Below, in pieces: positions 26,801 to 43,281 of a stretch of 64,000 nucleotides of DNA. The DNA is taken from positions 1 through 64,000 of the IMG/VR virus record IMGVR_UViG_3300033977_000049; one strand, written 5' to 3'. The notes below the pieces were generated by a model that was not told the DNA's origin, did not search any database, and was given only the letters and a program-made list of their open reading frames with translations. Each line of letters begins with the position of its first letter. Position 1 is the stretch's first letter. The stretch comes from a virus. The translations under genes were made by a program, and so were the position numbers.

Positions 26801-27900
26801 GCTTGAAATCCTGCTGCCACTCCTAGTCCTATATTACCCAAAATAGAAGGTGCCATTTCAAGTGCTTGTGCCGGATCTTCAGAAAGAGCCTTTCTAAATT
26901 GAGGATATTGGTATATCGCTCCCAATATCATATTTGTACTAAAACCTAAATCAGTTAACCCCTGTATGGTTTTTGCAATAGTATCAGCCTTGGTTAATGG
27001 CATTCTAGCGCTACGAAGTATAGCGCCAAGTCCATTAATAATCAGTCCGCGATTTCTTAAATCGGAAAGATCAAGCCCTATCCTTCTTAGCCAATATCTT
27101 CCTTCTGTAAATAAGCGAGGATTAATGCCAGCCGATGAAAGAGCTTCTGGAACGCTTCTTCCTAAAGACATGGCTTTTTCAGCTATTTGTGCTCCACGGG
27201 CGATTTCTCCTATTTCATCATTTGTAAATAATCTAGCGGCAGCGGCAACTCCCTGCTTGCCTAGCGCTTCAATGGTTTCTTTACTGGCAGCACCAGCCGC
27301 TACATCTCTAAGCGCTGCCTCTCCAGCCGCCGTACCCAATCCACCTCCCCAGGTTCCTATAGTCAATGCGAGCATAGCAGGAGCGGTTTGAGAATATAGC
27401 AAATCTGTAATAAATCTACCCACACCTCCCACAAGTGCTCCAGTATATTTCCCGGCAGCCTCTCCAGCAAAAGTGCTAACAGCTTCTTTAGTGGATTCTC
27501 CGATCTCTTTAGCCCATCTTCCTCCTTCATATTTTAATACATCTGGTAATCCCAAGGCATCAACTATTTGATTGCCCTTAGGTTCCCAAATCCAATCCCA
27601 CATAGATCTGATAACGCCTTCTTTATCTCGCTGGGAAGTGGCAGGTGGGGCTATAGCCGGTTCGGTAGAAACTGGAGTTGAACTGATCGGAATTAATCCT
27701 AATTCCTCTGGGCTTTTGTAACCAATGGATTCTTTTGTTATAGAAGTTAATGGTGTTAGCCCAAGTTCTTCAGGAGATTTATAAGTAGTAGGAAATCGCC
27801 CTGCTATAGGCGGTGCTACTGGCATGGGAGATTTAGCTTTTGTTGCTACGGGAATTAATCCAAGCTCTTCCGGCGATTTGTAAATATCTTGATCTGCCAT
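17878..27900 (-). CDS. Giant (3340 aa) internal virion/ejection protein of large-polyvalent-protein type
   Basis: Last gene of the structural arm; contains degenerate ParB-like, HExxH metallopeptidase, SAM-lyase-like, CxxxCxxC radical SAM and glycosylase-like segments. Confidence 0.8.
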   Translation of the reverse strand: MADQDIYKSPEELGLIPVATKAKSPMPVAPPIAGRFPTTYKSPEELGLTPLTSITKESIGYKSPEELGLIPISSTPVSTEPAIAPPATSQRDKEGVIRSMWDWIWEPKGNQIVDALGLPDVLKYEGGRWAKEIGESTKEAVSTFAGEAAGKYTGALVGGVGRFITDLLYSQTAPAMLALTIGTWGGGLGTAAGEAALRDVAAGAASKETIEALGKQGVAAAARLFTNDEIGEIARGAQIAEKAMSLGRSVPEALSSAGINPRLFTEGRYWLRRIGLDLSDLRNRGLIINGLGAILRSARMPLTKADTIAKTIQGLTDLGFSTNMILGAIYQYPQFRKALSEDPAQALEMAPSILGNIGLGVAAGFQARAHLRPEVGALAEKFGIQNLIPSEEAQKTRQMGGEFDRKVTEVNRTADLFRADKNKTFKDVNPEDRFAAFLLRDRGEDKEALQRDLSLFKESAGRATAEDTERLRPRAEIYDPNARANQEPILKSVDATLMATSGSLDIRQGMSPELREEAQKNIDTVIHRIRAGRPIDPIEIYRDAEGNIVGVNGRYALQAYKDLGFEHIPVLEMGRTDIRPDLTSIHEEMDKRKLEVAGRRLVSTKYTPEEIDRIIKIYEKSINPTARIRELAKLSENEFAADLANAALHDIHIPFIEDYITRIWGKDTDNQAVNRFVHEIRNYSEFHTNISMLNHRIIDDTVLGMLLGKKLLITDPIELMANYKARLGEAIAAREFVADMIDRGNKTSDGRPIAAYSGSGKVVEMPNGENPFLLIDGRRIRDIRIAAKEIEARRKEGTLDKAIKNGDIVVRFPKLAPPEEAVPKVEKPLLQETVGLEPVTDKFRQQIKDAWGMGLTDEQVEGGISLARAFARMRGVSLEEYWRERGLEGFERGTEEHLRAAGIPRERWAGVKGMADFQNDGKVIIRAMQGADFSTLVHEMFHVFRRGLPEEDLRILENWAGVKNGTWTVDAEEKTARALESHLITGRTYVPEMAGVFAKFKRWMRDIYDGLRNPSAQMLKIPLPPFLEEIFGRIGRPRKEILNPHEAISDLVQANNGATFNLYRGNMGVSGEYAVSIYPENEYTIKLDHKPTAKEVQGFIASPKIIGLLRDPSNNVGVWYDKDAKQWIMEVSVTVPDIGQAMMLGKKYNQQGIVHLDGKNYPFISTGGTGIKPGDAAWPNPEDRLGEMRKEQGRKFEQQQFNVLLQMKDKVREEAGVDIKGKRPSIILGPVEGSSFIFPDGRSETVPLGHPEWLTEHGYTDYEDAFNAGLIRIMNPGDQHAGFVGIQFGRLNPNTIEQVSDALTRLKTHPNSPIGIDWNVDREGYGHLAYRNLAEANDSEFGFRKQAMRKLARPNDTLLQGKDSIDLANIPLSAEEIRSREGLPDLKLLNIDGSDISNPNYTYKEASADTGNPWIRRSVDTGKGARETGNAHRTLLVQISNKLINPESSEPRLPEEVMESRYYDKLYDGSRPGYKRLDDFWEIPQWMGFASNFIPDADAYVIRSLSEAKDFLSKAGYGRIAFSALDVNRDMIRNIASAYKGHIDVGGYSGGAEFFKDLPNVKWHDNMASLARDMGVPYKEGVDYRHFKESGQDVIPRLTMSTGCLHKCAFCTIEKRIEMPSPEAINQQADAIGKLGSRLVYLNDKTFGQAPNYEMLPELYNRIKDINPDFGGFIIQTTAAQANKFSIDWLKKSGIRFAEIGVETYNNDLLKELHKPATEQLIDKAAARLKEADIALIPNIMIGLPGETAESMARTVDWLQKNADNISHANIYNTAVYEGTELAKKLTTASEADFDENALEKSWADTTMLRNFAGKLYGLASQMLNSMPESLKRRLPAISTDKLHAAATKGAEFLLQLAPDIDITTLHESASPLEKIVNEARERYALYSRKLAEEIDPRLHHAMGEIYKHAQDLIDESHGAERYGKQQTPTPSGIDQWEWNKLSPHYQKLYLAADTADKAMPEQLKAAALVGAGGRFWYDRYLAGFQKIFNPEDFPIFTKLLAAISPRKAVKTDLIQALQIWGDWNDKGRPADRKSITDIAHGRAIESQKIGTDLAGSEYYDDYRDYRTGEPRPYKVPDNIMSTLSEWSDLSGPKVSAFFANLMGNNHRATIDTWMQLFKGQKPFDYQGRPHEYLLYQAQLRNIAKDLNWTPSQAQASVWIFMRTLAELSGLDTASSKPLDFIVKQMESSPDIWQKELKAQTTDLVELLATDKEVRDALTGAGIDPGVIENAERAAKDAVTRIEEGSVEKPDIKTLQDIATRIQDYRTDLEKNRAAKADSILRLRAEIPKPITRKPYEQGWIIGNDIIPIRKFSTHEQNLKLSSMLKYGLGDTVDSALEKGAIKFGKNGNGYWFEAGKFDIAAKNAIARAIQERFGDAESFSIFSGKSKPFITSDPIDAIRALRYGMMGEHNIHGRISNELNTEAYSTPRSIENIPSNPTALFQESPAWDERDQAVKDGAALLWDHPMPMNEWFRQMRLRHNDAIIKDPEIYADSLRHILKMAEKSRPEDLKNIQKTAANNDTNHLAYIARELARVELIDPRYVQDRVDNALRAAGYSGRYNYKEPKGFVDFPTKPPKLLFQRMGIQESITGSGWISPSGKFKELPEGSEHPDILPERFGTGEEASNKAIDRGYIRIRSWKSDNAPDYKQWNIETSSYQSALDTLNRLPASPDNSDIYISVLREIPLEEWEDRQYNHYHGTIKDITRKLINRANKENILLQEKGGPISGEEMALPPAIEDKTQRLTGVPDNPPPKDPLDATLQRPKGDPIYLYNTHDYMTIDHPAFRHWNWAAYAPDGTPVLVKGDVRVHPDVYQYVTRRLGLEQSPLRGSAVGRAVLGLGTQFKQILLSLSPFHISQLGLRSLMSGVIPRLVKWDLKTDPDLAMLVEQSMTLGHRFQAESDFSEGLSASGTKSILLRKMPGIRDAQNWLQEFTFERLMPSLKAMVGKKLFGEWRERFAKDPKLYERYLQAHPDFSGLDPIRAAARAAAIETNERFGGLNYRDMGRSVGTQDWFRLVTLAPDWLESEVRLVKRLFDPTGGKLLRRDMAYFVGAMWVTARAVNMLVNNGQAHPEAPFGIVTEDKEGHKKVWSMRTLPGDMFHMADDPVGFMRGRASPTMRMATSLYSGRDALGRKLTPWQQTMDVVRNVMPISLQYIGKSAAGEMPAEIPSWQQGLRGAGIIPTPLRSEAESKAIQLATNRTEEGPVDEAALRKHQLMLEYEDQLRKGEISQQDLHQMVEDGQIPLDEAKRIVKEIRTTGGMDPALARLYLRCSRLAMPDFLQVWDLMTSSEKTSLSALMLQKKKAYQTKALKKMTPAERKADPTYQWILRTFPGSRPWEEE

Positions 27901-31201: not shown

Positions 31202-31375
31202 TTACTTCTCTTTGGGACTAACTAACTCGTGGGCAGCAGAAATTACTTTCTTTGCCAACACGTTAATTTCTTTTGCAGATACGTTAGGGAAATGGGATCT
31301 GACTATGCGCCCAACAGTAAAGTGCGATAATCTATTAATAGAATTATGGATTTCTCGCCTTTGATTTTTATTCAT
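31202..31375 (-). CDS. 57-aa hypothetical protein (not in ORF track)
   Basis: MNKNQRREIHNSINRL...SPKEK exactly fills the gap, overlapping the upstream stop (TAATG). Confidence 0.55.
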   Translation of the reverse strand: MNKNQRREIHNSINRLSHFTVGRIVRSHFPNVSAKEINVLAKKVISAAHELVSPKEK

Positions 31376-32583
31376 TAAATATTTAACGCTCCCGCTGGTC
31401 TATATCCATTTTTTAAGGATACTAATTCGGCCACTACCCAGCATTCTCCGTCAAAATTTTTCTCGGTTGTAAATAAGCGAGGGGCTTGAAATCTTACCGG
31501 AGTTCCTATTTGCTGAGCTTTGATTTTATTAGTAAAATATAGAAAGCTATTTTGATTCCAAAAGCTTTTATTAGAAGAGTCTTGAAAGGCTCCTCTGCCA
31601 TCGGTTGAAGAAACTTGAATGAATGCCCATCCAGCCGGGGCTAAAACTCTATACAATTCCTTTATAACGTGAATGGGATCTTTTAATTTAGAAAATATAT
31701 CGAAAGCCCTTATAACTCCCACCGAACTATCGGCTAAGGGCCATTTCTTATTTAAATTATTATCTAGGCATGTAAATCCTTGGCGCGTGACTTTACCCAA
31801 TTCTATTTTCTTCAACCCATTAATATCTGCCCAGCGCTCTGTAAGTTGTTTAATATATTTATCATATATCGTAAAAACATTATCTTGAATCTCTGCATTA
31901 ATATCTGATTTTAGCCAAGTATTTTCTCCATGAATTCTGTAAATATATAAACCTTTATCAATTCTGAGAAATTTAGTGGCTAAATACATTCTGCATATTA
32001 AATCCAAATCATCTAATACCCTTAAATCTTTTGCATATCCACCAATAGATTCATAAACGGATTTGCGAAATGCTCTTATGTGATCTGGGGCATACCAAAT
32101 TCTGGAAACAGAATCGGGATATGGATCAAAGGCAATGAATTCATTTAATTTTATCCCATTCCATTCTATTTCTCTATATTTCCAACCATGAGTTTCATCG
32201 TACAATGCAGGCTTCGTATAGCGCGGGCCTTCTTTATTCAATTGAGCATGGACTAGATTAGAATATACAAATCCAATTTCTGGATCTTGAAAGGCTTTAT
32301 AAACTTCCTCTAAGGCGTTGGGCATTAAAAGATCATCGTGATCCATTTCCACAAATATCTCTCCTGTAGCTTTTGCACATGCCGCCGCCTTTAGCGGACC
32401 AATCATTTTAGGGGCATTCCATTCTAAAAATCCCTTAACCCTAGAATCACTAAATTGAATGGGCTGTGCCCCGTTATTATAAAGGATTATCCATTCCCAA
32501 TCCGTATAGGATTGTAATTTTAAAGATTCGTATAACTCATTCAACCATTTAGAATCATGCGTTGCAGTGTATACTGAAATCAT
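31375..32583 (-). CDS. GT2 glycosyltransferase fused to a methyltransferase-like domain
   Basis: ISVYTATH, Q.YTDWEWII, MDHDD, LDDLDL; C-terminal WPLADSSV...KELYRVLAPAG. Confidence 0.85.
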   Translation of the reverse strand: MISVYTATHDSKWLNELYESLKLQSYTDWEWIILYNNGAQPIQFSDSRVKGFLEWNAPKMIGPLKAAACAKATGEIFVEMDHDDLLMPNALEEVYKAFQDPEIGFVYSNLVHAQLNKEGPRYTKPALYDETHGWKYREIEWNGIKLNEFIAFDPYPDSVSRIWYAPDHIRAFRKSVYESIGGYAKDLRVLDDLDLICRMYLATKFLRIDKGLYIYRIHGENTWLKSDINAEIQDNVFTIYDKYIKQLTERWADINGLKKIELGKVTRQGFTCLDNNLNKKWPLADSSVGVIRAFDIFSKLKDPIHVIKELYRVLAPAGWAFIQVSSTDGRGAFQDSSNKSFWNQNSFLYFTNKIKAQQIGTPVRFQAPRLFTTEKNFDGECWVVAELVSLKNGYRPAGALNI

Positions 32584-33110
32584 TATTTTGGTGCGCTCCG
32601 ACTTCCAGAATGAATTCTATATATCCAAGTAATTTCTGGAATAAATTTAAATTTAGCTCCAAGCTCGCCCAATCTTAACCACATATCCCAATTGGGATAA
32701 ACGGCCTTTCTAAATCCATTTACACTTAGCAGTGTAGATTTTTTGGTTAAAACAGTTGTTGGAATATAATTTTTTACCCTTAATGAAAATAAATCAAAAT
32801 CTTGAGATGTCCAGCTTTTACAGGCTCCCTGCATTTCGCAATCAGAATAAATTACGTCACATTCATCATGTTCTGCCCATAATCTTTCTAAATGATGTGG
32901 AAGAAATAAGTCATCGTCATTTAAAAATGCAATCCATTCTGTTTTTGATTCTCTTAATAAAGTATTAAGGGTATCAGCCTCTCCCTTGCGCTGTTGATCT
33001 ATGGCAATAATATGGTCAAACGCCTTCATAGTTTGATGTGAAACGGATTTCCTGCATTCCGTTAGCATACAATAGCGCTCTGGAAGAGATGGAGTTAAAA
33101 CTGTAATCAT
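32583..33110 (-). CDS. GT2 glycosyltransferase
   Basis: ITVLTPS, FLNDDD, WDMWLR, YRIH. Confidence 0.85.
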   Translation of the reverse strand: MITVLTPSLPERYCMLTECRKSVSHQTMKAFDHIIAIDQQRKGEADTLNTLLRESKTEWIAFLNDDDLFLPHHLERLWAEHDECDVIYSDCEMQGACKSWTSQDFDLFSLRVKNYIPTTVLTKKSTLLSVNGFRKAVYPNWDMWLRLGELGAKFKFIPEITWIYRIHSGSRSAPK

Positions 33111-33111
33111 A

Positions 33112-34836
33112 TTACACCACAATTAAAGTTGCTGAAGAATAACCTTGAAGATCTGCAACTTGACCGGCATTTGTAGTCTGTCCTTGTACGTATAAGTGTG
33201 CAGCGCTACTAGGAGTAACAATTGTTCCTTTAATTAAAACCCAACTATATCCGGTTGCTTGACACATTACCGCCCCGACTGATCCAAAGCCAACAGTACC
33301 CACAGCCCCTATCAATTGTGCGCTTAGAGAAGTATTTACTCCCTGTGCTCCTTGCGCTCCCATAATTAATACAGAACCACTAGACATGGCTACAGTACCC
33401 TGTATAGTAAACTGCAAGCCCTGTGCTCCAGCGGAGACGTAAATGGGTAAATATATATCTACTTGATAAGCCGTGGATGTGGCTAATGTTGGAAAGGCAA
33501 ATATATTAGATAAAGTAGTGCTTAAAGAAGCTGCCGCAGCATAGTAAGCATAAAGTGCTCCAGTTGGCCCTGTATAGCCAGTATATCCTGTATATCCAGT
33601 GAAATTACCTGCTCCAGTATAGCCCGTGTAGCCTGTATATCCAGTAGGGCCTGTATAGCCGGTATAACCTGTAAAATTTCCTGGGCCAGTATAGCCAGTA
33701 GGGCCAGTATATCCAGTATATCCAGTAAAGTTTCCCGGTCCAGTATATCCCGTTGGACCTGTGTATCCTGTATATCCAGTATATCCCGTGAAGTTGCCCG
33801 CTCCCGTATATCCAGTAGGGCCTGTATAGCCGGTATAACCTGTAAAATTTCCTGGGCCAGTATAGCCAGTAGGGCCAGTATATCCAGTATATCCAGTAAA
33901 GTTTCCCGGTCCAGTATATCCAGTTGGGCCGGTATATCCGGTATAGCCTGTATATCCTGTAAAATTTCCCGGTCCTGTGTAACCGGTGTATCCCGTTGGA
34001 CCGGTTCCGGTATATCCAGTATATCCGGTATAGCCGGTTGCACCCGCTCCTGTATAGCCTGTATATCCAGTATAACCAGTAAAATTACCAGGTCCGGTAT
34101 ATCCGGTATAGCCGGTTGCACCCGCTCCTGTATAGCCTGTATATCCAGTATAACCAGTAAAATTACCAGGTCCGGTATATCCAGTTGGCCCTGTATATCC
34201 AGTTGGTCCTATTACTCCAGCAGTACCTTGAGGTCCTGTATAGCCGGTATAACCGGTATATCCAGTTGGGCCAGTGTATCCAGTAAAAGCTCCAGATCCG
34301 GTATAACCGGTATATCCAGTTGGACCGGTATATCCCGTAAATGCCCCAGGGCCGGTATAGCCTGTATAACCCGTAGGGCCGGTATATCCAGTATAACCTG
34401 TAAATGCACCGGGGCCAGTATAGCCTGTATAGCCAGTGGGACCTGTATACCCCGTATATCCAGTAAATGCACCCGCGCCGGTATATCCAGTGGGTCCAGT
34501 ATATCCCGTATAACCAGTATAACCAGTTGGTCCAGTCGCTCCAGCCACGCCAATAGGTCCAGTATAACCTGTATAGCCGGATGGTCCGGTATATCCAGTA
34601 TATCCAGTTGGGCCAGTATAACCAGTAAAATTACCCGGACCTGTATATCCGGTATAACCAGTAGGACCCGAAAATCCACCATAGGGAAGAGAATTCCAAG
34701 CTGTTACACCATCCCCAATTTTTATTTGATGGGTATCGATTTCTAGTCCCATTTCTCCTGAATAGAGAACTGGGTTATTCGATGTCCAGTTGGAGGCGGT
34801 ATCTCTTCGGAATTGAAAGATCAAATCGAAAGACAT
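33112..34836 (-). CDS. Fibre protein: Mtd-N-type anchor domain, Gly-Tyr-Thr/Gly-Pro-Thr repeats, C-terminal beta head
   Basis: [39 protein letters not shown], then about 370 aa of G-X-T repeats. Confidence 0.85.
33555..34668 (-). repeat. Collagen-like G-X-T coding repeat with internal duplications
   Basis: 9-bp periodicity; near-identical blocks at about 33641/33812 (171-bp offset) and 34025/34103 (78-bp offset). Confidence 0.9.
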
Positions 34837-35069
34837 TATGAAACCTGTGCAGAATTACCAAAATCTATCGCAAAACAACTACTGGTTCTCGGGGTAGAAG
34901 CAGAACCTCCATCAATAAGTAAATTGCCAAAGAAAATAGTAGCCATCTGATTTAATGAAGCCTGTACCGTTTGGCCGCTTTGCACTAGGGGTATAATTTC
35001 CCCTCCCTGTAGGGCAGCGGCTTGCGGCAATTGGCTTATTTTTATCTCTTGTCTATTAATATATGCCAT
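34836..35069 (-). CDS. Small tail-associated protein
   Basis: [18 protein letters not shown] motif typical of fibre N-termini; IDGGSA. Confidence 0.6.
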
Positions 35070-35071
35070 GA

Positions 35072-35410
35072 TTAATATTTATTAAAAAATCCAGACAGCC
35101 ACGGTTCTTCTTTTAAAAAAGTAGAAATTAAATTGTGCATAGAATCGTTCAAGGGATTTTGAAGCATGATCGCTGACTTGGCTGCTGTAATGGAATCGTT
35201 TTGAGTTAAAGATAGATCGCAAGCGGCGCTTGACGCATACATTTTAATCCAAAAAGAATACCAAGCATAACTTACCGCATTTAATAAAAGCGTTCCATTT
35301 AATTGATCCAGCCAATTTACTGTGTTATCATCTAAAATGGTTTCGCATTCTAATAATGTACTAGATTCGGTATCTATAAGCGTTTCACTTTCTGTCATTA
35401 AGTCGAACAT
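35072..35410 (-). CDS. Hypothetical protein (paralogue of 47213..47473)
   Basis: C-terminus MHNLISTFLKEEPWLSGFFNKY. Confidence 0.55.
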   Translation of the reverse strand: MFDLMTESETLIDTESSTLLECETILDDNTVNWLDQLNGTLLLNAVSYAWYSFWIKMYASSAACDLSLTQNDSITAAKSAIMLQNPLNDSMHNLISTFLKEEPWLSGFFNKY

Positions 35411-38400
35411 TCTAGCTTAGCCAACTCTTCTTTTAAAATCTTTCTATCTTCTTCGCGGTGCGACCATCCAAGTCGATATATATCATCCATAACTTTTGGC
35501 TCTCTGGAAAAATGATGATGAATCATTTTGGCATCTTCGCACCTATGGGCTTCATTTATTTTAATGGCCCTGGACCATAACAGGTTATCGCATCCTACAT
35601 GAAAAAACTTTTCCGAAAAGATTTCTCCGAATTTTTCAATCAAATCTTTTCTAATTAAAAAGTGCTCGCAAATATTACTTTTGTCTGGATAAAGCTCTCC
35701 GGTATTAAATGTTACAAGGCCATGATTCTTTGATGCCTTTACTGCATTATAAAGGCTCCAGGATTCAAACTCCGTATCATTAGCGGCAAAAACATAAACA
35801 TCAGAATTGTTGTTTGCGCGGTACATTCTATTAACTTTTTGAGGAACTGTAGCTTTTTTATCGTTATCTATAATAACATCAATGAGATGCTTGGGATAAT
35901 AAAGGCGATCAATTGAATCCAAGCACCGCTTTAGTCCCGATTCTCTTTCTAGGGTTGGAATTAAAATGCCCACCCTAGGAAGGAAATTGGGTGAATCAGA
36001 AGCCCAACTTTTCATAAAATGATGGAATCCTATAGTATTATCCGTTAACCGGATAGTCCCATCTTGATGATTATAGGGGAAAAAATATTCAGGGGAAAGA
36101 ATTTTAATGGTATAATCCGATGCTACCTTTCCTGGCGCTAACCATAGACATCTAGGCTCGCCATAAGCTTGAAGATATATCTTTGGGGTAATCACTTCTT
36201 GCGCTGCTTCAAAGACATATGCATCATCTCCGGAAAATTTTTCTTCTATTTCCCTAAGGCACTCTTTCATAATTGGATGATGCGGAATAGATCCCATTAT
36301 AGAATTAGCAATAAAACAATTTTCTTCTTGGCATACAAATAGCTTATATTGTAATAAATTATCAAAATTTTTTCCCGAAAGAATTTCCATATCGGCATCA
36401 CAATAAATGCCACCTTCTTTTTCTAAATACCACATGCGCAGATAATCAACCGCCTTAATCCATTTTCCCGATGCCAAAGCCTTTTCCACATAAGATATAT
36501 TTCTTGGAATGTCTTTTAATCCAATAATTTTATGCTCGTAACCTAGCACCGCTCGCTGGCTGTTAATACATTTTTCTATAAAGGGTGGCATGGTTTCATT
36601 ATTAGGTAATCCCCATATAGTAAAAATTTTCTTGGGAATTAATAATTCTAAAGAAATCATGTCTTTATATAATTCCTGCATTTCTATTAGAGGGGGTTGA
36701 TAATCTCTTGTTTGGCCTAAAAAAATAGGATCAAATGCACTTCCCGTATCTAAGCATGTAACATTATGATTGGCTTCCAATACACTAGCTATCAGTGGTT
36801 TAGCTGCAAGTCCACAGCTAAATATAAAAATAGAATTATTTTGGCAATATGGGCGTAGCTTGTCTAAAATGGCGTTGTAATTTGCAAATGCATTTCTTTC
36901 TGGAACTTCTATAAATTTAGCCTTCAACATTTCTGTAACTTTACTTAGCTTAGACGGTCCTATAAAAACCTTTATCCTGTCAAGATTGCTTAGGGTTTTA
37001 TAAAAATCATGGATGGGAGTTAGGTCTTTATCTTTTGGATGTAATAAAATATTTCCCAATTGTAAGCTATCTTTATCTCTCCAGAATGCAATGTAAGTAT
37101 CGGGCAGATTATATAAAAAGTTGAATGCTTTGCGCAGGGCTTGATTAAGTTCTAGGGAATAAGCTTGCCCATCACAATTTTCGCCCTTTACATATTCCAT
37201 GCAATGTTGTTCACCGTCGCCAAATTTGATGAAAGCAAATGGTTCGTTCGATATAAGTTTTTGTAAAAGTTCGTTTAACGATTTTGGATATTTTCCAAAT
37301 GGTTTCTCTACTATATCACTATGCCATAACAGACCATCCGGCACTTGTTCCACCTGAGATTCCTCAACAGGATTTCTTTCTTCAAAATATTGTCTATCTT
37401 GATTATATTTTGGATGTTGAGGGTCATAAGCTATAGCTTTTTGCCAGTGCTCTTTTGATTTTTCTTGCTGGCCTAAACGCCAAAATGCCCAATATAACAT
37501 TTCATGGGGATAATTTGTATAGTGCGATCCTATATTGCAATAACAATCATTAAGGGGAATTTCTAATGCAGCCGCTCCATAACATACTGTCTTTTGAGCA
37601 TCGCCCTTTTTATAAAAATATTCAGCTAGTTTAATTAAAGGTTCGCGCCTAGTTCCGTCTACCGTAAAAGATTTATGGTAAGCTTCTAGCGCCCTGTCAT
37701 CTTCACCCAAAGCGAGATAGGAATCCCCTATAAAAATAAAAGATTGCCCGCGCTCCTGTGCCCACCTATTCATTGCAACGTGTCTGTTTAATTCCTGAAT
37801 AGCAGATTTGAAACGCCCATTCCAACATAATTCTCGGCCAAAATAGTGTGCATTTCGGTCATTTTCCGGATGTAAATAACAATCTAGGGCAAGGGCTGGT
37901 AAATAATTAGAGCGATGTTCGTGAGGTGCTTGATGGTGCTCTACTAACATGATTTCTTGGGGTAAATAGGTGCATTTAGCTTGTCCAACTAATATTTCAT
38001 GTACGATTCCCTGCCAGTGCATTTTGCGCCGATCATAAGTTCTGCAATGTCGAAATTGAATAGCGGGCTGCCCATTAGGATATCGGCAGAATATAAAATG
38101 CATTTCCATCTGCTCGTATCCTTCATCAATTAATTTTTCGATAGCATCTATATTTAAGGTGTTATATTTTTCATCACAATCAACAATGGATACGATATTA
38201 TTGTTAGCCAATTCCACGGCGCGATTTCGGGCAGCAGCAAAATCAAATAATTTATCTCCGGCCTTGATAATAGATTCTTCGCCTTCAATAATAAACTTTT
38301 TATTTACCGCGTCGGCCACTTCTTCGGTAACTATGTGTTTAAATTTCTCGCCTTCTTCAAATACTCTATAGCCATAATTTCTGGCTACCTTAACAGTATC

Positions 38401-38571
38401 ATCCTTACTTCCGGTATCAACTAGGACGACTTCCCCGCCTCGCTTTAAAAATTCAGATAAAGATTTATGAAGTCTCCAGAGATTCGGTGCTTCATTGCGA
38501 GCAATTAAGCATACCGAGAAGCGAACTCCTGATTTATGGATTTTTATTGGATGCCGACTTTTCTTTTCCAT
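35398..38571 (-). CDS. Multidomain glycosyltransferase: GT2, TPR, GT-D-like, GT32 (DXD), GT2
   Basis: SVCLIARNE/VDTGSKD/DCDE/WQGIVHE; TPR; FIKFGDGE...LDTGSAFD; IPKKIFTIW...DYLR...GGIYCDADM; ILIPTLER...FAAND. Confidence 0.85.
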   Translation of the reverse strand: MEKKSRHPIKIHKSGVRFSVCLIARNEAPNLWRLHKSLSEFLKRGGEVVLVDTGSKDDTVKVARNYGYRVFEEGEKFKHIVTEEVADAVNKKFIIEGEESIIKAGDKLFDFAAARNRAVELANNNIVSIVDCDEKYNTLNIDAIEKLIDEGYEQMEMHFIFCRYPNGQPAIQFRHCRTYDRRKMHWQGIVHEILVGQAKCTYLPQEIMLVEHHQAPHEHRSNYLPALALDCYLHPENDRNAHYFGRELCWNGRFKSAIQELNRHVAMNRWAQERGQSFIFIGDSYLALGEDDRALEAYHKSFTVDGTRREPLIKLAEYFYKKGDAQKTVCYGAAALEIPLNDCYCNIGSHYTNYPHEMLYWAFWRLGQQEKSKEHWQKAIAYDPQHPKYNQDRQYFEERNPVEESQVEQVPDGLLWHSDIVEKPFGKYPKSLNELLQKLISNEPFAFIKFGDGEQHCMEYVKGENCDGQAYSLELNQALRKAFNFLYNLPDTYIAFWRDKDSLQLGNILLHPKDKDLTPIHDFYKTLSNLDRIKVFIGPSKLSKVTEMLKAKFIEVPERNAFANYNAILDKLRPYCQNNSIFIFSCGLAAKPLIASVLEANHNVTCLDTGSAFDPIFLGQTRDYQPPLIEMQELYKDMISLELLIPKKIFTIWGLPNNETMPPFIEKCINSQRAVLGYEHKIIGLKDIPRNISYVEKALASGKWIKAVDYLRMWYLEKEGGIYCDADMEILSGKNFDNLLQYKLFVCQEENCFIANSIMGSIPHHPIMKECLREIEEKFSGDDAYVFEAAQEVITPKIYLQAYGEPRCLWLAPGKVASDYTIKILSPEYFFPYNHQDGTIRLTDNTIGFHHFMKSWASDSPNFLPRVGILIPTLERESGLKRCLDSIDRLYYPKHLIDVIIDNDKKATVPQKVNRMYRANNNSDVYVFAANDTEFESWSLYNAVKASKNHGLVTFNTGELYPDKSNICEHFLIRKDLIEKFGEIFSEKFFHVGCDNLLWSRAIKINEAHRCEDAKMIHHHFSREPKVMDDIYRLGWSHREEDRKILKEELAKLECST

Positions 38572-38983
38572 GGTCGCTCCTTTTTTCTATATCTGATATT
38601 CTTAACCTATAAACCTTCCAGGGCAATTCTTCAAATCCAAATTTTTTGGAAAATGTAGGAATAGTTTCTTCAGTAGCTACATAATATATTTCCCCGGAAC
38701 CTTCTTGTATAGCTGATGTAATGGCATCTTGGAATAGCGTCTGTAATGCTACTGCAATTTCCCCTATCGAAGCTGAAGGATTAATACAAAGGCTTTCTAA
38801 ATGCAAGGGCCTTTGAATTGGTGCAAACATAATTGGCCCATTTTTATTGCAAATAGCTCGAATGGATGTATTTTTATAAGTTAAAACGCTGGGATCTATC
38901 TCATTATTTCTAGTAGACAGTGCCCATTCACAGAATAATTTCCTATCGCTAGCCTTTGCTGGACGCACGAATACGGGTAGCAT
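38534..38983 (-). CDS. GNAT-fold protein
   Basis: VRPAKASD N-terminus, LESLCINP, FSKKFGFEE. Confidence 0.55.
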   Translation of the reverse strand: MLPVFVRPAKASDRKLFCEWALSTRNNEIDPSVLTYKNTSIRAICNKNGPIMFAPIQRPLHLESLCINPSASIGEIAVALQTLFQDAITSAIQEGSGEIYYVATEETIPTFSKKFGFEELPWKVYRLRISDIEKRSDHGKEKSASNKNP

Positions 38984-38991
38984 ATATTCTC

Positions 38992-39384
38992 CTAATTTTT
39001 GGGATCGGCGGTTGCAGCAGTGGACATTTTTGAAGGACTGACCGCAGTGCTAATTTTAGCCTTTGCCATGCCCAGCCTTTCCCTTTCCGCAGTATCCAAT
39101 CGTTTATTAATATCAGTTATGGCTTGTTCTATTCGAGCCACGGCGGGAACAATTATATCTAATTTTTGTTTAAAGTCTTCATTGGCACTTTGCAATGCCG
39201 TTACTTTTTCATTAATAGATGTGGATTGTATGGCATTTCCTGACAGTTGATCCGCCACTTTGGAGCGGTCTGACCATAGCCACCCTATTAATCCAAATAG
39301 AGCACAAAGCAGCATAATAATAACCGTTGCTGCTCCCCAATTAATATGTGGCGATCTACATTCCGGATGATGGTGATTATGCAT
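38992..39384 (-). CDS. Membrane protein with coiled coil
   Basis: Single TM segment followed by heptad repeats. Confidence 0.55.
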   Translation of the reverse strand: MHNHHHPECRSPHINWGAATVIIMLLCALFGLIGWLWSDRSKVADQLSGNAIQSTSINEKVTALQSANEDFKQKLDIIVPAVARIEQAITDINKRLDTAERERLGMAKAKISTAVSPSKMSTAATADPKN

Positions 39385-40516
39385 TTATTTTTCCTTCAGC
39401 AAAGGACCTATTACTGATAATTCTTGATGCTTCATTTTCCGGTAAAGACAAGTTTAAAATTCTATCGCATATTAGTTTGGATAGATAATATTTGCCGACC
39501 CAATAGGCAGAAATGGCAAGTTCGTCTAGTGCTCGCCATTCATATACTTCTTTTTCCACAAACAATCTATCATTTGGAATCGGTATGTTTACTGCTTGTT
39601 GGGCAAAAAGAAAAGCAGCATCATGATAATTATGACATCTATAATATCTAGCCAGGCGATATATAGGTTCGGCCCTAGTCGGACGGCGATTATAGGCCCT
39701 TAAATATGAAAATACTATTTCTTTTTCTGATAAATCAAGTTGCTCTGATACGCAGCCAATTTGATATGCCGACCACCAAGCCTCTTCATCCCAGCCGCCC
39801 ATTTCCATCCGTCGTGTATAAAGATCTATGGCTTCCTTAAAATTTCCAAGATCACGATGGGTTTGGGCTAGATAAAATATTGTACGGCAATCGTCTGGAT
39901 TTTTTCTATAAGCCCCTAAAAGAAGCCCCAAATCCCTTTCTAGCTTTTCTTTATATTGTTCCGGAGTTTTTCCGGGTCGTTCTCTATAAATTCCGGAAAG
40001 CGGATACGTGGTATAAAATCTCTGACAATCCAGATATTCATGAGTCTCACCTTTCCAAATCCAAGGTAAATTGCTTCTAATTAAAAATGGCCTTAAATAT
40101 TGCAGTGAACAATATTTTTCCAATATTTCATAGCAATCTTTTTCTAGGGGATCGGGAAGTTTGAAATTCGTGTCTGGAAATAATTTTGTGCGCCCATCCA
40201 TAAGCATAATATAATCACAATTCATTTCTTGGGCTAATTTTAGTGCTTCATTTCTATTATGCTCAAAATTTTTCCATTCGCTAGTTTTTATTGTTATCGG
40301 AAGGCCAAGATTATTACACGTTTCCTGGCAAATCTGTAAAGTATTATCTTTGCTTCCGGTATCTATAATTGCGGCATGTGTAATAAAGGGCAATGCCGAT
40401 TTAATAGTATTTTCTATGTATTGCGCCTCATCTCGCACAATCATATTCCAGCAAATTGTATTTTTAGTTAAAGCATTTGGCTCGTTAAAACGACGCCGAT
40501 CAATAACTTTTATCAT
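39377..40516 (-). CDS. GT2 glycosyltransferase with TPR domain
   Basis: ICWNMIVRDE, IDTGSKDNT, NF..NRN.AL, WKGETHE, FYLAQT, RPTRAEP; the DxD motif is atypical (MDGR). Confidence 0.85.
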   Translation of the reverse strand: MIKVIDRRRFNEPNALTKNTICWNMIVRDEAQYIENTIKSALPFITHAAIIDTGSKDNTLQICQETCNNLGLPITIKTSEWKNFEHNRNEALKLAQEMNCDYIMLMDGRTKLFPDTNFKLPDPLEKDCYEILEKYCSLQYLRPFLIRSNLPWIWKGETHEYLDCQRFYTTYPLSGIYRERPGKTPEQYKEKLERDLGLLLGAYRKNPDDCRTIFYLAQTHRDLGNFKEAIDLYTRRMEMGGWDEEAWWSAYQIGCVSEQLDLSEKEIVFSYLRAYNRRPTRAEPIYRLARYYRCHNYHDAAFLFAQQAVNIPIPNDRLFVEKEVYEWRALDELAISAYWVGKYYLSKLICDRILNLSLPENEASRIISNRSFAEGKINA

Positions 40517-40527
40517 TTTCCCCTTTT

Positions 40528-43281
40528 TTAAGTTACACTTATCAAAAATACAATTTGATAATTACCATTACTTCCTGCAACTGAATAAGAAAATGTGGGA
40601 TTTAATGGCCCGCCCGTAGGAATGCCTGTATATAAACAACCAGAAGCATTAGCACCATCATTAACCTGTTGCTGTTTCGTAACCGTAGCTGCTGGATCGG
40701 ATACAGTATCAGTAGAAGCAGCGCGATTAGAACCAAAATAAATCGCCAAATCCGTAGAACATGGAGAGGGTGAGGTACTTGAGTTCATGCTAAGTGTTAT
40801 AGAAGAAGATCCAGTTGTATTAATTTGACTGGTAATGGGAAACCAAATTCTATCCATGCCCTTGAGAGTTATAATGGCTAAGACCGCATCATACGTTCCA
40901 CTAAAACTGATTGTAACTGATCCATTGCTAATGTCAGTAGAATTTAAAACTTTCCAAAAAGTATTTTTTGTCCAACTAGCTTGATTAACTGAATCAATGG
41001 AAACCCATCCGTTAGGAGTTGTGGCATAATAACCTCCAGCCGTAAAAATAATAGCCAAATCACCAGCTTGGGTTCCCGAAGGCCAAGAAACTGTATAACT
41101 TGACGCACTCGATGCTTGAATGCCAGTTCCCCTAATGGATGGCGTGGAAACCGCCCCTCCCGTAGCACCAGTTGGTCCGGTTGCTCCAGTGGCTCCTGCT
41201 CCAGTTACTCCAGTTAGTCCAGTGGGTCCAGCGGGTCCAGTGGGTCCAGCGGGTCCAGTGGGTCCAGTGGGTCCAGCGGGTCCAGTTGGCCCTTGTAATC
41301 CAGCAGCCGCCGTATTTGGCGGACCTTGCACAATAGTTGTATCTGTAACGGCTCCGGCCCATCCATTACCACTTAAATCCGGCTCTGGGCTAGTGCCCAT
41401 AAATTTCCAATAAACTGTAGGATAGCCCACCGATACATCCATTGAGGGATATCCATTTGCCAGATTAGTTATATCTGTTGCGGTTAATTCTTTTCCTATC
41501 CACACCGCAGGCTCGGCAACGGAATGAGGTGAAAAATAGCTTGTAGTAGTTCCCACTATACCAGCATTAGTCTGGAAAAATCCATTAGTACCAGTCATAG
41601 GACCTTGATTGCTTCCCGGACCAATCGTAGAAACTAATGCTCCGTTTAAATAAGTATAATATGTTCCATTCCCAGAAGTAATAAAGGCTATATGATTCCA
41701 AACTCCCACCATTCCAGCCCAATAACTCGATGGAATACATACAGCGCCCCAATCGATCCAGGCTTGGGAACCGGAATTATAATAAGAAGTCCATAATAAT
41801 GCTCCTGATGGGCCGCTTTGCACATCCCAATCTAGGGCCATGTCGAAATAATAATTTGCCGATCCATCATTCCAATATGATTCTGCAAAACAGCATTCTA
41901 TAGTATCACTTGCTTGGCCAGTTTTAGGTTGCCATAATGGTTTAAACCAAAATGACATAGACATAGAACCGCCAGAATATGTAATTCCAGAACTGGTGGT
42001 ATAGGTTGTGGTTATATGTCCTGTAGAGCCATCGCCTTTACGTCCGGAAAATGGAGCAGTGGCATTAGCGCCCGTTGTTCCGGTTAATCCGGTTGGACCA
42101 GTCATGCCAGTTGGCCCTGTTGATCCAGTGGGTCCTGTTCCCCCACCACCCGATCCTCCCGTTGGAGCTTCCCAATTTATTCCATAGGGCTGAGAAGGAT
42201 CAACGGTTAATACATAACCAGCGGTTGCTCCTACTGGTAACACTACATCTTGTTTGCCGCTGCCAGTAATTAATCCGCCTTCAGGCAATAAGGGTAGTCC
42301 CGTTATAATTTGCTGAGCCGCAGAGGAAAATGTTGCTAAAATGACCGCATAAGCTGCCGCTGATGTTCCCGGACCCCCTACCGATGAGGTTACTTGACCA
42401 GATGGCAGATTGCTTATCGATGCAGTAGCAATCTCATACCAACCGCTACTCCAGGAGGGAACCGTAAATGAAGAGGGAGACCAAGATCCCCATGTTGGGG
42501 TATAATAAAATGAAAAAGTAGCAAGGGCCAATACCGGACCAGATGAACTAACTGTGCTAGTAGCAAGTGTTCCCGGTTGATTTCCAGCATTTCCCGTACC
42601 AACTGTTAGACTTGGCTTTCCTTGAATTTCAATAACATAACAAACATCATATCCGTATCCCGGAGTTGGCCAAGTGTTAGAAGTAAAATTCCAAGAGCTT
42701 CCATCTCCCGATTGGACAATTTTTTCTCCTATAACTGCATTGCCGCCATATCCAGAACCGCTATAACTGGATAATTGTTTAAATCCAGTCGGAAGATTTA
42801 TTGTAACCGGACCACTGGACGAACTAGAGAGTGCTATAGCTATTAACGTATTTCCTGGTGTGGGAGAATTAGGAAGAGTAACGGTAAGTGGATTGGAATA
42901 AACATTTCCAGTTTGAGAAGCTTGTACGATTTGAGGAATAGTAGGCGCTGTGGGTTGTACCGTTACAGTTCCAGCAGCAGCTTTTTGAGCCGCTTGATTA
43001 GCTTTTACAAGAGCTTGCTGCGCTGTATTACTTATCAGCGTAGGCATTGTAGGAAGATTTCTAACAAAAGTTGGCCGATCTGGAAAGAATCTGGTTGTAT
43101 AAATATCAGCAGCCGGATCTACGGGAAGATTCCCACGATTGGGAGATGGATTTCCGGGAACAGATAGAAGGGTTCCTTGATCCTTAGTTGGCGCTATGGG
43201 AATTTGTGGCGCTGGATTTTGCGAGGATTGAAATTCCGCCTGCGTTGCTGGCGTTGCCGCTCTTGATTCAAGTGATGGCAT
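40528..43281 (-). CDS. Tail fibre/spike with collagen G-P-T segments and a LamG-like domain
   Basis: GPT/GPA triplets, SMSFWFK...WNHIAF...YLNG LamG pattern, Ser/Thr-rich beta domains. Confidence 0.75.

Follow-up and report, generated by a model that had tools for sequence, protein, structure and literature searches.

What do the glycosyltransferases (GTs) encoded among the tail genes of a podovirus-like phage from peat act upon? In the 64,000-nt window (the whole stretch of DNA that was analysed), positions 31375-43281 form a 12-kb stretch in which two collagen-like fibre genes are interleaved with four soluble GT genes, and the surroundings are the late structural block (tail genes) of this uncultured peat-soil phage. 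Every gene of the stretch lies on the minus strand, to which all gene and domain coordinates below refer, and packing is tight throughout (43281 to 31375): neighbouring genes are at most 11 nt apart or overlap by up to 38 nt. The terminase (61549-63504) and an SU10-type portal (58945-61029) are upstream on the same strand, and the replication genes are on the opposite strand. The GT genes encode a GT2-TPR protein, a GT2-TPR/GT-D/GT32-like/GT2 protein, a GT2, and a GT2 joined to a methyltransferase fold; four small non-GT genes (130, 149, 112 and 77 aa) complete the stretch. ORFs, strand and Pfam matches bore out the sequence-only reading of four co-oriented GT genes flanking two G-X-T proteins in a tail operon, and its estimate of about seven GT domains agrees with the seven counted in the four genes from Pfam and NCBIfam matches and AlphaFold folds. 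Judging from gene content, the 12-kb cassette is probably a self-contained 'glyco-fibre' module, predicted to encode two trimeric collagen-like virion fibres together with their own cytoplasmic glycosylating enzymes.

The two putative fibres differ in their repeats. The 917-aa protein (40528..43281) matched Pfam Collagen (E 3e-4), an NCBIfam Scl-like family and tail-fibre PHROGs. A triplet count gave ~26 G-X-Y triplets (G-P-T, G-A-T and similar, with Tyr absent at X), arranged in two short collagen-like stretches of G-X-T, aa 375-406 and aa 661-710, with globular domains between them. Its N-terminal ~79 aa were similar to the protein that follows the homologue of the 1187-aa gene in the related phage L017, and it shared domain similarity with a fibre of the jumbo-phage contig L022. 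The 574-aa protein (33112..34836), presumed to be the main glycan acceptor, matched Mtd_N at aa 8-45 (E 1e-12), Collagen (93.8 bits) and tail-fibre PHROGs. It had ~115 G-X-Y triplets, mostly G-Y-T or G-P-T (~110, aa 54-428), with a composition of 26% Gly, 21% Thr and 13% Tyr, and ended in a C-terminal head of ~145 aa. The repeats were interrupted every 3-7 triplets (most commonly 5-6) by G-[PA]-G-[NA]-F-T, which kept the three-residue register, and within the gene, units of 171 bp and of 78 bp had recently been duplicated (92-98% match). In hydroxyproline-free G-X-Thr repeats of this kind, discussed for Riftia cuticle collagen and Ac-(Gly-Pro-Thr)10, O-glycosylation of Thr lets a random coil become a stable triple helix, which galactosylated (GPT)10 forms and the bare peptide does not (PMC11923368). 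Riftia differs in being an animal collagen carrying galactose, and no relationship between the enzymes is implied.

Next to the 917-aa fibre gene lies the gene for a 379-aa soluble enzyme (39377..40516) with a GT2 (GT-A) domain (Pfam, 36.5 bits against a cut-off of 23.3), TPRs and a match to phrog_13126. Its 552 homologues are ~360 aa long and many are bacterial. The closest characterised system is SgtA-BclA3 of Clostridioides difficile, in which SgtA, a 358-aa GT-A enzyme with four TPRs whose gene adjoins bclA3, modifies Thr residues in the collagen repeats of BclA3 with beta-O-GlcNAc (PMC7157674). This precedent fits the proposed pairing of a GT2-TPR enzyme with a neighbouring GXT collagen (PMC7157674): the two enzymes were likened by architecture, both being soluble GT-A-TPR proteins of ~360 aa without a TM segment in the phage enzyme, encoded beside a collagen with Thr at Y. 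The systems differ in that BclA3 belongs to the spore coat and the phage proteins would be virion fibres, in the two GT2-TPR paralogues and five further GT domains found here, and in the X position, which is mostly Tyr in the main (574-aa) fibre. SgtA is also Mn-dependent, whereas the 379-aa enzyme has D107-G-R109 in place of the D-A-D of most family members, so that the second Asp of the DXD is lost (alignment A3). Its nearest relative, P0122, also has D-G-R, and P0123 has D-A-H (alignment A3); the other invariant residues, E30, D57, R88, D107 and H159-E160, are kept (alignment A3). The 379-aa protein is a candidate initiating O-glycosyltransferase for the adjoining G-P/A-T fibre; with its D-G-R motif, it may be metal-independent, altered or inactive.

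The second GT2-TPR module forms the N-terminus of a 1057-aa enzyme (35398-38571), the five domains of which are GT2, TPR, GT-D, GT32-like and a C-terminal GT2-like domain. Residues 1-400 (37372..38571) comprised a GT2 (GT-A) domain (Pfam, 53.2 bits) and TPRs. The DXD was D131-C-D133, with D131, C132, D133 and E134 invariant (alignment A1). By sequence, this N-terminus matched PDB 22ao weakly (E 2.6e-4, over ~55 residues only), the entry of Listeria monocytogenes GmaR, a GT2-TPR flagellin O-GlcNAc transferase. GmaR is likewise a cytoplasmic GT2-TPR protein O-glycosyltransferase with a repetitive surface filament as substrate, although the filament is flagellin and not collagen. The third domain (aa ~425-635; 36667..37299), with G-D-G-E at aa 451-454, was assigned to the GT-D (DUF1792) fold by AF2 and Foldseek. 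Its Pfam profile score of 18.2 fell short of the cut-off of 27, and matches to GT-D-like and NCBIfam TIGR03728 were also weak; the AF2 model (pLDDT 86.4) matched the DUF1792 GT-D structures 4pfx, 4phr and 5v4a with E ~1e-6 to 2e-7. Of these, 4pfx and 5v4a are GT-D enzymes acting in the O-glycosylation of serine-rich repeat (SRR) adhesins. The streptococcal Fap1 system (4pfx, 4phr, 5v4a) shares with the phage locus the GT-D fold and the building of an O-glycan on a repetitive Ser/Thr-rich fibre, stepwise in the cytoplasm and by several, partly fused GTs. It differs in its acceptor (SRR as against collagen G-X-T), in a sequence identity of only 16%, and in that the phage GT-D is embedded in a five-domain chain.

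The fourth domain (aa ~640-855; 36007..36654) was of the retaining GT-A type and the GT32/Och1 kind according to Pfam and Foldseek, with matches to Gly_transf_sug (26.8 bits, cut-off 23) and Caps_synth. Its DXD was D725-A-D727, and D326 and D328 in model numbering were invariant (alignment A2). Foldseek retrieved Och1, YeGT and PaToxG (8ovt, 9n3s, 4mix); two of these nearest solved folds, YeGT and PaToxG, belong to toxins that glycosylate proteins. The C-terminal GT2-like domain (aa ~860-1057; 35398..35994) matched an NCBIfam GT2-type family at aa 858-943, and its motif, A-N-D-T-E-F at aa 930, was conserved in the ~580-aa members of the family (alignment A1), where the N-terminal GT2-TPR is usually accompanied by this domain. 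Among 80 viral GT2-TPR loci, a C-terminal GT2 was found in 72, a GT-D in 21 and a GT32-like domain in 15.

The two remaining GTs are encoded downstream of the 574-aa fibre. A short GT2 of 179 aa (32583..33122; Pfam, 36.1 bits; phrog_14775) carried the motif D69-D-D71. The 402-aa protein (31375..32583), whose family comprised 372 clusters (E<=1e-30), had a GT2 domain (36.1 bits) with the motif E-M-D81-H-D83-D84 and an SpsA/K4CP-type GT-A fold (AF2 model, pLDDT 92.7). A methyltransferase-like domain had been proposed here, and the fold was verified in the AF2 model: residues 244-402 form a class I methyltransferase fold (Z 11.4-12.3 to 3cc8, 3ccf, 1xxl, 1vl5 and others) and match Methyltransf_11 above the cut-off (23.9 bits against 21.2), with a SAM motif I that is degenerate (E-L-G-K-V) across the whole family (alignment A4). 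The 607-aa protein P0241 fuses homologues of both, the 179-aa-type GT2 (44% identity, E 6e-45) standing in front of the 402-aa-type part (60% identity). Comparable virus-encoded, soluble, multi-domain 'assembly-line' GTs that act on the virus's own structural protein are known from chlorovirus PBCV-1, in which A064R combines two rhamnosyltransferase domains with a methyltransferase and A111/114R has three GT functions (PMC9614988, PMC7826918). The likeness is one of organisation. PBCV-1 is a eukaryotic giant virus with N-linked glycans on its major capsid protein, whereas the acceptor here would be a collagen-like fibre.

A check proposed with the sequence-only reading was the co-occurrence of G-X-T fibres and GT2-TPR genes across phages, and it gave a positive answer in both directions. 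With aa 1-400 of the 1057-aa enzyme defining the family, 135 relatives were found in viral contigs, and 80 loci were kept. A Thr-rich collagen gene, defined as a collagen ORF on the same strand in which Thr fills 40% or more of the Y positions, was present in 73 of the 80, at a median gap of 1.2 kb. Kinship was handled by identity clustering only: at 80% identity there were 48 clusters, 42 of them with the association, and at 70% there were 32, of which 27 had it. No Thr-rich collagen was present in seven control loci (136 kb) of relatives lacking the GT. In the reverse direction, 34 further viral records coding for a 12-residue collagen motif were searched, and the GT family was found in 19, including all four of those at least 90% complete; it was not found in G022, an 80%-complete provirus with the motif. 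In 57 of 80 bacterial loci of the paralogous 379-aa family, a Thr-rich G-A/P-T collagen gene lay close by, in many cases as the immediate neighbour, and these loci spanned Burkholderiales, Streptomyces, Chlamydiae, Myxococcota and Acinetobacter. The fetched flank held no Thr-rich collagen gene in ~9% of the viral and 29% of the bacterial loci. The GT-collagen association is strong, two-way and cross-kingdom, and extends beyond this phage lineage; no published description of the module in phages was found.

Comparison of three related phages showed that the 12 kb is exactly a variable, swappable cassette. In G003, the homologue of the 1187-aa gene is followed by two small genes and then by homologues of the 316-aa and 145-aa genes, with neither collagen nor GT2 in the slot. 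The equivalent slot of L017 holds one 954-aa G-Y/P-T fibre and one GT2-TPR-GT32-GT2 enzyme, and that of the present phage two fibres and four GT genes. The other structural genes are conserved among the three, while GTs and fibres come and go together. The support for the claim that the GTs act on the fibres is strong and comparative-genomic in kind, comprising this joint presence and absence, the viral and bacterial co-occurrence and the reverse search.

How the module might work can be outlined from these architectures. The fibres would be glycosylated by cytoplasmic enzymes before or during assembly. The TPR parts of both GT2-TPR modules (the 379-aa enzyme and the 1057-aa N-terminus) would hold the repetitive G-X-Thr chain while the modules attach the first sugar, donated by a nucleotide sugar, to the hydroxyl of the Y-position Thr, as SgtA does on BclA3. 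The oligosaccharide would then be extended, one sugar per domain, by the GT-D, the GT32-like domain, the C-terminal GT2, the 179-aa enzyme and the GT2 domain of the 402-aa protein, and the methyltransferase-fold domain may, with some uncertainty, cap the glycan. The modified residues, the sugars used and the 'methyl cap' are details that we only infer. Glycosylation would be likely to benefit the phage by stabilising a triple helix that lacks hydroxyproline, by protecting the fibres and/or by contributing to adsorption.

At least one GT-TPR protein, especially the 379-aa protein with D-G-R, could instead be catalytically dead and serve, through its TPRs, as a repeat-binding chaperone or assembly factor for the fibres. 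TPR domains are protein-binding modules, and the second DXD Asp is gone in this protein and its closest relatives, in a family that otherwise has D-A-D. This account is nonetheless unlikely, as the remaining invariant residues from E30 to H159-E160 are retained, a canonical DXD is dispensable in some GT-A enzymes, and motifs are intact in the six other GT domains, D131xD133, G-D-G-E (aa 451), D725xD727, DDD (aa 69-71) and D81-H-D-D among them. It is also rather unlikely, with a little more to commend it, that the sugars go to other proteins of the virion (those of the capsid, decoration or tail, or the 1187-aa protein) instead of or besides the collagen repeats. The GT genes are in the structural block, 7-10 GT domains exceed the need of a simple Thr-GlcNAc, and a few GT-bearing loci have no detectable collagen gene. 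The claim that some mycobacteriophages glycosylate their capsids has published backing (Freeman et al., 2023, as cited in PMC12619734), and there too phage GTs lie beside structural genes and the virion is decorated; the acceptors are the capsid and tail-tube C-termini, and neither collagen repeats nor a GT2-TPR architecture is reported. Against such acceptors stand the tight same-strand linkage, seen in phages and bacteria alike, to Thr-rich collagen genes specifically, and the joint gain and loss of GTs and fibres in three phages whose other structural genes are conserved.

Non-protein substrates fit the locus less well. Remodelling of glycans on the host surface (LPS, capsule or wall polymers), as a superinfection block or an aid to release, would suit the PHROGs category of phrog_13126 and phrog_14775 ('moron, auxiliary metabolic gene and host takeover'), and polysaccharide building is common in the GT2, GT32, GT11 and GT31 families. 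By hydropathy, however, none of the locus GTs has a membrane segment, and a search of the phage genome found no Bac_transf, Glycos_transf_4 or Wzy_C/ligase gene. The combination of soluble GTs with a genome lacking lipid-carrier initiating transferases and Wzy/ligase argues against work on LPS or capsule; it leaves no lipid-linked route and so points to direct protein glycosylation. The late structural operon, the TPR fusions and the collagen linkage also indicate a protein substrate, and host glycans are very unlikely targets. Glycosylation of phage DNA bases as an anti-restriction measure appears extremely improbable: many phage GTs modify DNA, according to general statements (PMC10202952, PMC12619734), but neither the linkage to collagen nor architectures with TPR, GT-D and GT32 domains are in keeping with known DNA glycosyltransferases. 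The earlier argument from late-operon location holds as well, the GT genes lying among the tail genes and not with the opposite-strand replication genes.

Searches of RNA runs found none containing the locus. Among its small genes, the 130-aa protein (38992..39384) has, by hydropathy, one N-terminal membrane helix, followed by a coiled coil, and shows a weak Rz-type spanin likeness (DUF2570 and Rz-like PHROG matches, E 4e-4 to 1e-3). A homologue (33.6% identity) lies in contig L022 beside a 379-like GT gene, together with a 917-aa-like fibre. The conserved 149-aa protein (38534..38983) is common to L017, with 51% identity and an equivalent position after the GT gene; it had no family match in Pfam or PHROGs and no similarity to Tunturi_3 gp22 or the 135-aa protein of G003. 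An acidic 112-aa protein (35072..35410), encoded between the 1057-aa enzyme and the 574-aa fibre, and a 77-aa protein (34836..35069), directly upstream of the G-Y-T fibre gene with a 1-nt overlap, are ORFs only, with no Pfam or PHROG family matches. Just outside the window, upstream of the terminase, there is a second sugar island with a GHMP sugar kinase, GT31/GT11 domains and an SDR resembling GDP-fucose synthase; its probable role is to provide and attach a 6-deoxyhexose, for instance fucose.

The IMG/VR record was a linear sequence of 87,974 bp, estimated by CheckV to be 89% complete, and its DNA was found in a peat metagenome, probably the one it came from. Replication genes, including a PD-(D/E)XK nuclease, ClpP, a primase-helicase and a sliding-clamp-like protein, lay on the plus strand within roughly the first 17.8 kb. 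A long minus-strand structural block contained the large terminase (61549-63504) and an SU10-type portal (58945-61029), and a free-standing LAGLIDADG homing-endonuclease gene (55505-56383, minus strand; E 1.9e-10) lay inside the head-gene region. The last gene of the block (17878-27900, minus strand) encoded a 3340-aa protein with a radical SAM domain at residues 1600-1759 (E 2.9e-14) and a DUF7178 domain; its size and position are reminiscent of virion-packaged giant proteins. Megablast of the locus at 31375-43281 against GenBank phages gave no DNA-level match. The sole cultured relative by portal was the Tunturiibacter (Acidobacteriota) phage Tunturi_3, with 33% identity, and the annotation of its first 50 kb, a stretch that includes the structural block, lists neither a glycosyltransferase (GT) nor a collagen gene. 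Promoter and terminator scans returned the same counts as shuffled sequence and were uninformative on operon structure, and no RNA dataset containing the locus was listed.

Read along the minus strand from 43281 to 31375, the genes of the locus encoded a 917-aa fibre, proteins of 379, 130, 149, 1057, 112 and 77 aa, a 574-aa fibre, and proteins of 179 and 402 aa, with intergenic spacings of only -38 to +11 nt. Both fibres matched tail-fibre PHROGs. The 574-aa fibre had an Mtd_N-type N-terminus (E 1e-12), a Pfam Collagen match of 93.8 bits and 115 G-X-Y triplets, in which X was mainly Tyr or Pro and Y mainly Thr, giving an overall composition of 26% Gly, 21% Thr and 13% Tyr. Its repeats were broken by G-[PA]-G-[NA]-F-T every 3-7 triplets, most commonly every 5-6, and since Asn or Ala substitutes for Gly in these breaks, the three-residue register is preserved. 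The ten N-F-T "sequons" were rejected as a sign of N-glycosylation, since they arise automatically when Asn takes the place of Gly in the G-X-T register. Units of 78 and 171 bp had been duplicated recently, with copies matching at 92–98%. The Atlas model of the entire protein had a pLDDT of 0.46, and an Atlas search with the C-terminal head was uninformative, with BclA_C appearing only at 0.78, below the useful range. The 917-aa fibre was different in make-up, with 26 triplets in two shorter G-P/A-T segments that had no Tyr at X.

The sequence-only reading had counted about seven GT domains and one methyltransferase-like domain in this locus, a count that was borne out by Pfam, AF2 models and structure matches. 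All four GT genes exceeded the Pfam GT2 cut-off. A GT2 domain followed by TPR was found by Pfam in the 379-aa protein, whose gene started 11 nt past the 917-aa fibre gene, and in residues 1-400 of the 1057-aa protein, whose gene lay upstream of the 574-aa fibre gene with two small ORFs between them; both were devoid of transmembrane segments. The GT32 domain of the 1057-aa chain scored 26.8 bits with Pfam Gly_transf_sug (cut-off 23). The GT-D domain was only weakly detected by Pfam and NCBIfam TIGR03728, and residues 400-860 were therefore modelled with AF2 from an alignment of 22 homologues (pLDDT 86.4). By Foldseek, the first half of this model had the DUF1792 GT-D fold (4pfx, E 2.4e-7; 4phr, 1.2e-6; 5v4a, 1.1e-6), and the second half matched Och1 (9n3s, E 1e-6) and the protein-glycosylating toxins YeGT (8ovt) and PaToxG (4mix).

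Six of the seven GT domains had conserved acidic motifs. Within the 1057-aa chain, D131-C-D133 of the N-terminal GT2 was invariant among 19 aligned sequences, D725-A-D727 of the GT32-like domain was invariant in the alignment of the middle region, and the C-terminal GT2 had an N-D-T-E motif. The GT-D domain carried G-D-G-E at residues 451-454, kept in the consensus of the same middle-region alignment, which we take to be the GT-D catalytic motif, i.e., the DXE metal-binding motif near the N-terminus of DUF1792 domains. The 179-aa and 402-aa proteins had D-D-D and D-H-D-D, respectively. The exception was the 379-aa enzyme, with D107-G-R109 in place of the D-A-D seen in 14 of 17 aligned homologues; its nearest relatives had D-G-R, D-A-H or D-G-D, with the remaining invariant residues retained. 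One possibility is that the 379-aa protein is no longer catalytic and acts instead as a TPR chaperone.

The model of the 402-aa protein (pLDDT 92.7) combined an N-terminal SpsA/K4CP-type GT-A domain with a region (residues 244-402) that aligned by VIA-align to class I methyltransferases (3cc8, 3ccf, 1xxl, 1vl5, 6f5z, 3l8d and 2p8j) with Z of 11.4-12.3 and rmsd of 2.3-3.0 over 124-135 residues. Pfam Methyltransf_11 scored 23.9 bits (cut-off 21.2). The glycine-rich SAM motif I (E/DxGxGxG) was absent from this protein, which had I-E-L-G-K-V instead, and across 26 members of the family only the first Gly was kept, with L-G-C-G in one member. The domain is therefore called methyltransferase-like rather than a methyltransferase, and methylation by it is treated as a possibility. 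A PDB sequence search with this protein, and with the 231-aa and 553-aa proteins of a second sugar island described below, returned no match. The 179-aa and 402-aa genes were fused elsewhere as a single 607-aa protein (P0241), which ties the two functionally to each other. Homologues of the 1057-aa enzyme were numerous in metagenomes (580-1500 aa) and retained the N-terminal GT2-TPR and C-terminal GT2, with middle insertions of GT-D, GT32, Methyltransf_24/11 or, in one case, radical SAM. This family thus has very different tailoring domains inserted between conserved terminal GT modules. The radical SAM case, P0062 (1195 aa, covering 97% of the 1057-aa enzyme), carried PF04055 besides GT2, GT32 and Methyltransf_24.

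Comparison with related phages revealed how the cassette behaves as a unit. Five viral contigs had portals 53–66% identical to that of the record, and none of them carried a GT2 gene. One of these relatives, the 56.8-kb contig G003, extended into the region of interest. There, only two small genes separated the homologue of the 1187-aa protein from homologues of the window's 316-aa (39%) and 145-aa (54%) proteins, with neither collagen nor GT in the slot. In the 94-kb contig L017, found via the GT search, the 1187-aa homologue was followed by a 233-aa protein with a beginning like that of the 917-aa fibre; next came a G-Y/P-T fibre of 954 aa (206 triplets), a GT2-TPR-GT32-GT2 enzyme of 803 aa and a 149-aa homologue (51%), and then the 316-aa and 145-aa homologues. 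The interval delimited by the sequence-only reading therefore coincides exactly with a slot of variable content, flanked by two conserved tail genes, in which fibres and GTs vary jointly, being both absent, both simple or both elaborate. The 204-kb jumbo-phage contig L022 repeated a trio of 917-aa-like fibre, 379-like GT and 130-aa protein, which suggests that sub-cassettes move between unrelated phages. The 130-aa member of this trio (38992-39384, minus strand, mid-cassette; homologue at L022:14700-15080, beside the other two genes) was a single-pass membrane/coiled-coil protein with weak matches to Rz-like spanins, and could function either in lysis or in connection with the fibre. For the 149-aa protein, an assignment as GNAT was not supported: it had no similarity to the "acetyltransferase" gp22 of Tunturi_3; it was also not similar to the 135-aa protein in the equivalent slot of G003.

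Co-occurrence of GXT fibres and GT2-TPR enzymes across phages, proposed as a check in the sequence-only reading, was found in both search directions. An alignment of the N-terminal 400 aa was scanned against 2.9 million viral contigs (a scan with the single 1057-aa sequence confirmed no locus), and at least 135 GT2-TPR relatives were confirmed, from which 80 loci were kept. An ORF with at least six consecutive G-X-Y triplets was present in 76 of the 80, and in 73 the GT lay on the same strand as a collagen ORF with at least 40% Thr at Y, at a median distance of 1.2 kb (≤3 kb in 68). When the GTs were grouped by sequence identity, the link held in 42 of 48 clusters at the 80% level and in 27 of 32 at the 70% level. 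Seven control loci from GT-less relatives (136 kb) contained no Thr-rich collagen ORF. The reverse search used a DNA pattern encoding a 12-residue peptide and returned more than 120 viral stretches, with 12 of the contigs listed already in the GT set; another 34 records were searchable, and 19 of them carried the GT family, including all four that were at least 90% complete, and the negatives were mostly fragments of 3–34% completeness.

The association extended to bacteria. For the 379-aa family, 552 homologues with lengths near 360 aa were found, and many came from bacteria. A scan of contigs from one genome per species confirmed 383 relatives, of which 80 were kept, and a Thr-rich G-A/P-T collagen gene lay within 8 kb in 57 of these 80 loci, often adjacent. 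Taxa with a linked collagen included Cupriavidus, Acidovorax, Comamonas, Ralstonia, Paraburkholderia, Streptomyces, Parachlamydiaceae, Polyangiaceae and Acinetobacter. A separate 379-like gene was seen in one viral locus only (L022), leaving no power for a pairing test of GT family and collagen type. Together, these patterns, drawn from sequence, point to a widespread GT2-TPR family tied to Thr-rich collagen-like fibres.

The closest characterised system is SgtA of Clostridioides difficile, a 358-aa GT-A plus TPR enzyme whose gene adjoins bclA3 and which, in a Mn-dependent manner, adds beta-O-GlcNAc onto Thr of the BclA3 collagen repeats (PMC7157674). The 379-aa and 1057-aa enzymes are likened to SgtA, as it has been described, by architecture and gene neighbourhood, all three combining GT-A and TPR with a Thr-collagen neighbour. 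With respect to the Mn2+ dependence of SgtA, the N-terminus of the 1057-aa enzyme keeps D131-C-D133, whereas the 379-aa enzyme has D107-G-R109. Whereas anatomy, folds, motifs, enzyme solubility, cassette behaviour and co-occurrence were observed, the glycosylation steps that follow are inferred. The two GT2-TPR modules would, going by architecture and gene neighbourhood, likely be the initiating enzymes; the remaining five GT domains would likely elongate the glycan, and the methyltransferase-fold domain would possibly cap it. Thr-containing triplets are enriched in bacterial and viral collagens, and helix stabilisation is a concrete candidate benefit because Ac-(Gly-Pro-Thr)10 forms a triple helix only once its Thr is galactosylated (PMC11923368). 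Shielding and adhesion are other candidate benefits of fibre glycans.

Routine annotation treats phage glycosyltransferases as DNA-modifying or host-takeover enzymes, and PHROGs places the GT families examined here in the category "moron, auxiliary metabolic gene and host takeover". None of the GTs of the locus had a membrane segment, and no match to Bac_transf, Glycos_transf_4 or Wzy_C was found anywhere in the genome, so neither a lipid-carrier pathway nor an en-bloc oligosaccharyltransferase is encoded. Remodelling of the host surface is disfavoured on four counts: the enzymes are soluble, lipid-carrier machinery is missing, the genes sit in the late operon, and they are linked to collagen. 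The first two of these fit direct, stepwise protein glycosylation in the cytoplasm. A collagen-bearing actinophage GT has been read as protecting DNA or the cell wall (PMC10202952); for the present enzymes, DNA glycosylation is disfavoured by gene position and enzyme architecture. Mycobacteriophage-type virion glycosylation resembles the window in having GT genes within the structural block, but its acceptors are C-termini of capsid and tail-tube proteins, whereas the linkage here is to collagen fibres. Other virion proteins may nevertheless be glycosylated, perhaps in addition to the fibres.

Further sugar genes were found outside the cassette. A second sugar island lay past the right end of the window and immediately upstream of the terminase genes (G000:C1:64178-69896 of the whole record, minus strand), with all its genes on that strand. 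It encoded an SDR of 336 aa whose best match was GDP-L-fucose synthase (E 4.6e-43), a 553-aa protein in which GT31-type Galactosyl_T and GT11 fucosyltransferase domains are fused, a 332-aa GHMP sugar kinase (HddA-like, E 1.4e-37; fucokinase-like, E 1e-16), a 231-aa protein matching viral GT31-like proteins in the Atlas (score 0.97-0.98, TM 0.68-0.81), and a 455-aa protein of unassigned function. The Atlas cluster of GT31+GT11 fusions was mainly from Nucleocytoviricota. Among the early/replication genes, a GFO/IDH/MocA oxidoreductase (5024-6022, plus strand) was closest to UDP-N-acetylglucosamine 3-dehydrogenase (NCBIfam E 7e-48) and, on this similarity, may be a further sugar-nucleotide modifying enzyme. 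This brings the genome to as many as ten GT domains, along with sugar-nucleotide enzymes, which fits a complex glycan with a 6-deoxyhexose; the second island may be linked to the fibres.

The two collagen types differed in their X residues. Collagens beside the phage GT2-TPR+GT2 family (L011-L090) had a median of 37% Tyr at X, and in the bacterial 379-aa-family loci (L213-L292) X was Ala or Pro, with Tyr never among the top two residues. Tyr at X was more frequent in loci with a GT32-like domain (median 0.48 vs 0.34 without; Mann-Whitney p 2.6e-4). All of these figures are uncorrected for relatedness. PaToxG, like YeGT, is a tyrosine-modifying toxin, and glycosylates tyrosine; both are among the nearest solved folds of the GT32-like domain. 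These statistics, together with the PaToxG/YeGT-like fold, suggest Tyr glycosylation, as a reading of low probability. It can be extended to a joint scheme, which we consider improbable, in which GT2-TPR would start glycans on Thr at Y, GT32 would glycosylate Tyr at X, and each fibre type would have its cognate enzyme, the 379-aa family serving G-P/A-T collagens, the bacterial pattern, and the 1057-aa family serving G-Y-T collagens, the phage pattern. Counting those of the second island, as many as ten GT domains would build, on one polypeptide "assembly line", a complex heteroglycan with a fucose-type cap, and the result would be a new glycan-stabilised, hydroxyproline-free collagen using both repeat side chains.

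To our knowledge, among phages only a few mycobacteriophages have been shown to glycosylate their virions. O-glycosylation of Thr repeats in collagen-like proteins is known, as is virion glycosylation by enzymes that viruses encode; our literature search found no paper linking phage GT2-TPR enzymes with collagen-like fibres. The locus is unusually rich: it has seven GT domains, a five-domain chain in which GT-D and a toxin-like GT32 are included, a Tyr-rich G-Y-T fibre and, in addition, the second sugar island, and one phage lineage offers a natural three-state comparison of cassette absent, simple and elaborate. If the fibres are glycosylated, many phage "AMG" glycosyltransferases would need re-annotation as virion-maturation enzymes, and viral and bacterial G-X-Thr collagens would have an enzymatic answer to folding without hydroxyproline. 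Fibre glycans would then also be a new variable in phage host range, environmental stability and antibody recognition.

In-frame stops (TAA, TAG, TGA) occurred within GT2-TPR matches at G033:C1:21336-21896, G036:C1:35536-36129, G014:C1:9279-9605 and G026:C1:825-1745, and could reflect split genes, pseudogenes or assembly errors. The DNA motif of the reverse search was also present in GVMAG contigs, at the loci L099, L120, L123, L133, L136, L143, L150, L156, L159, L162 and L165. As these are giant-virus MAG contigs of IMG/VR, the occurrence of G-Y-T collagens extends beyond tailed phages.
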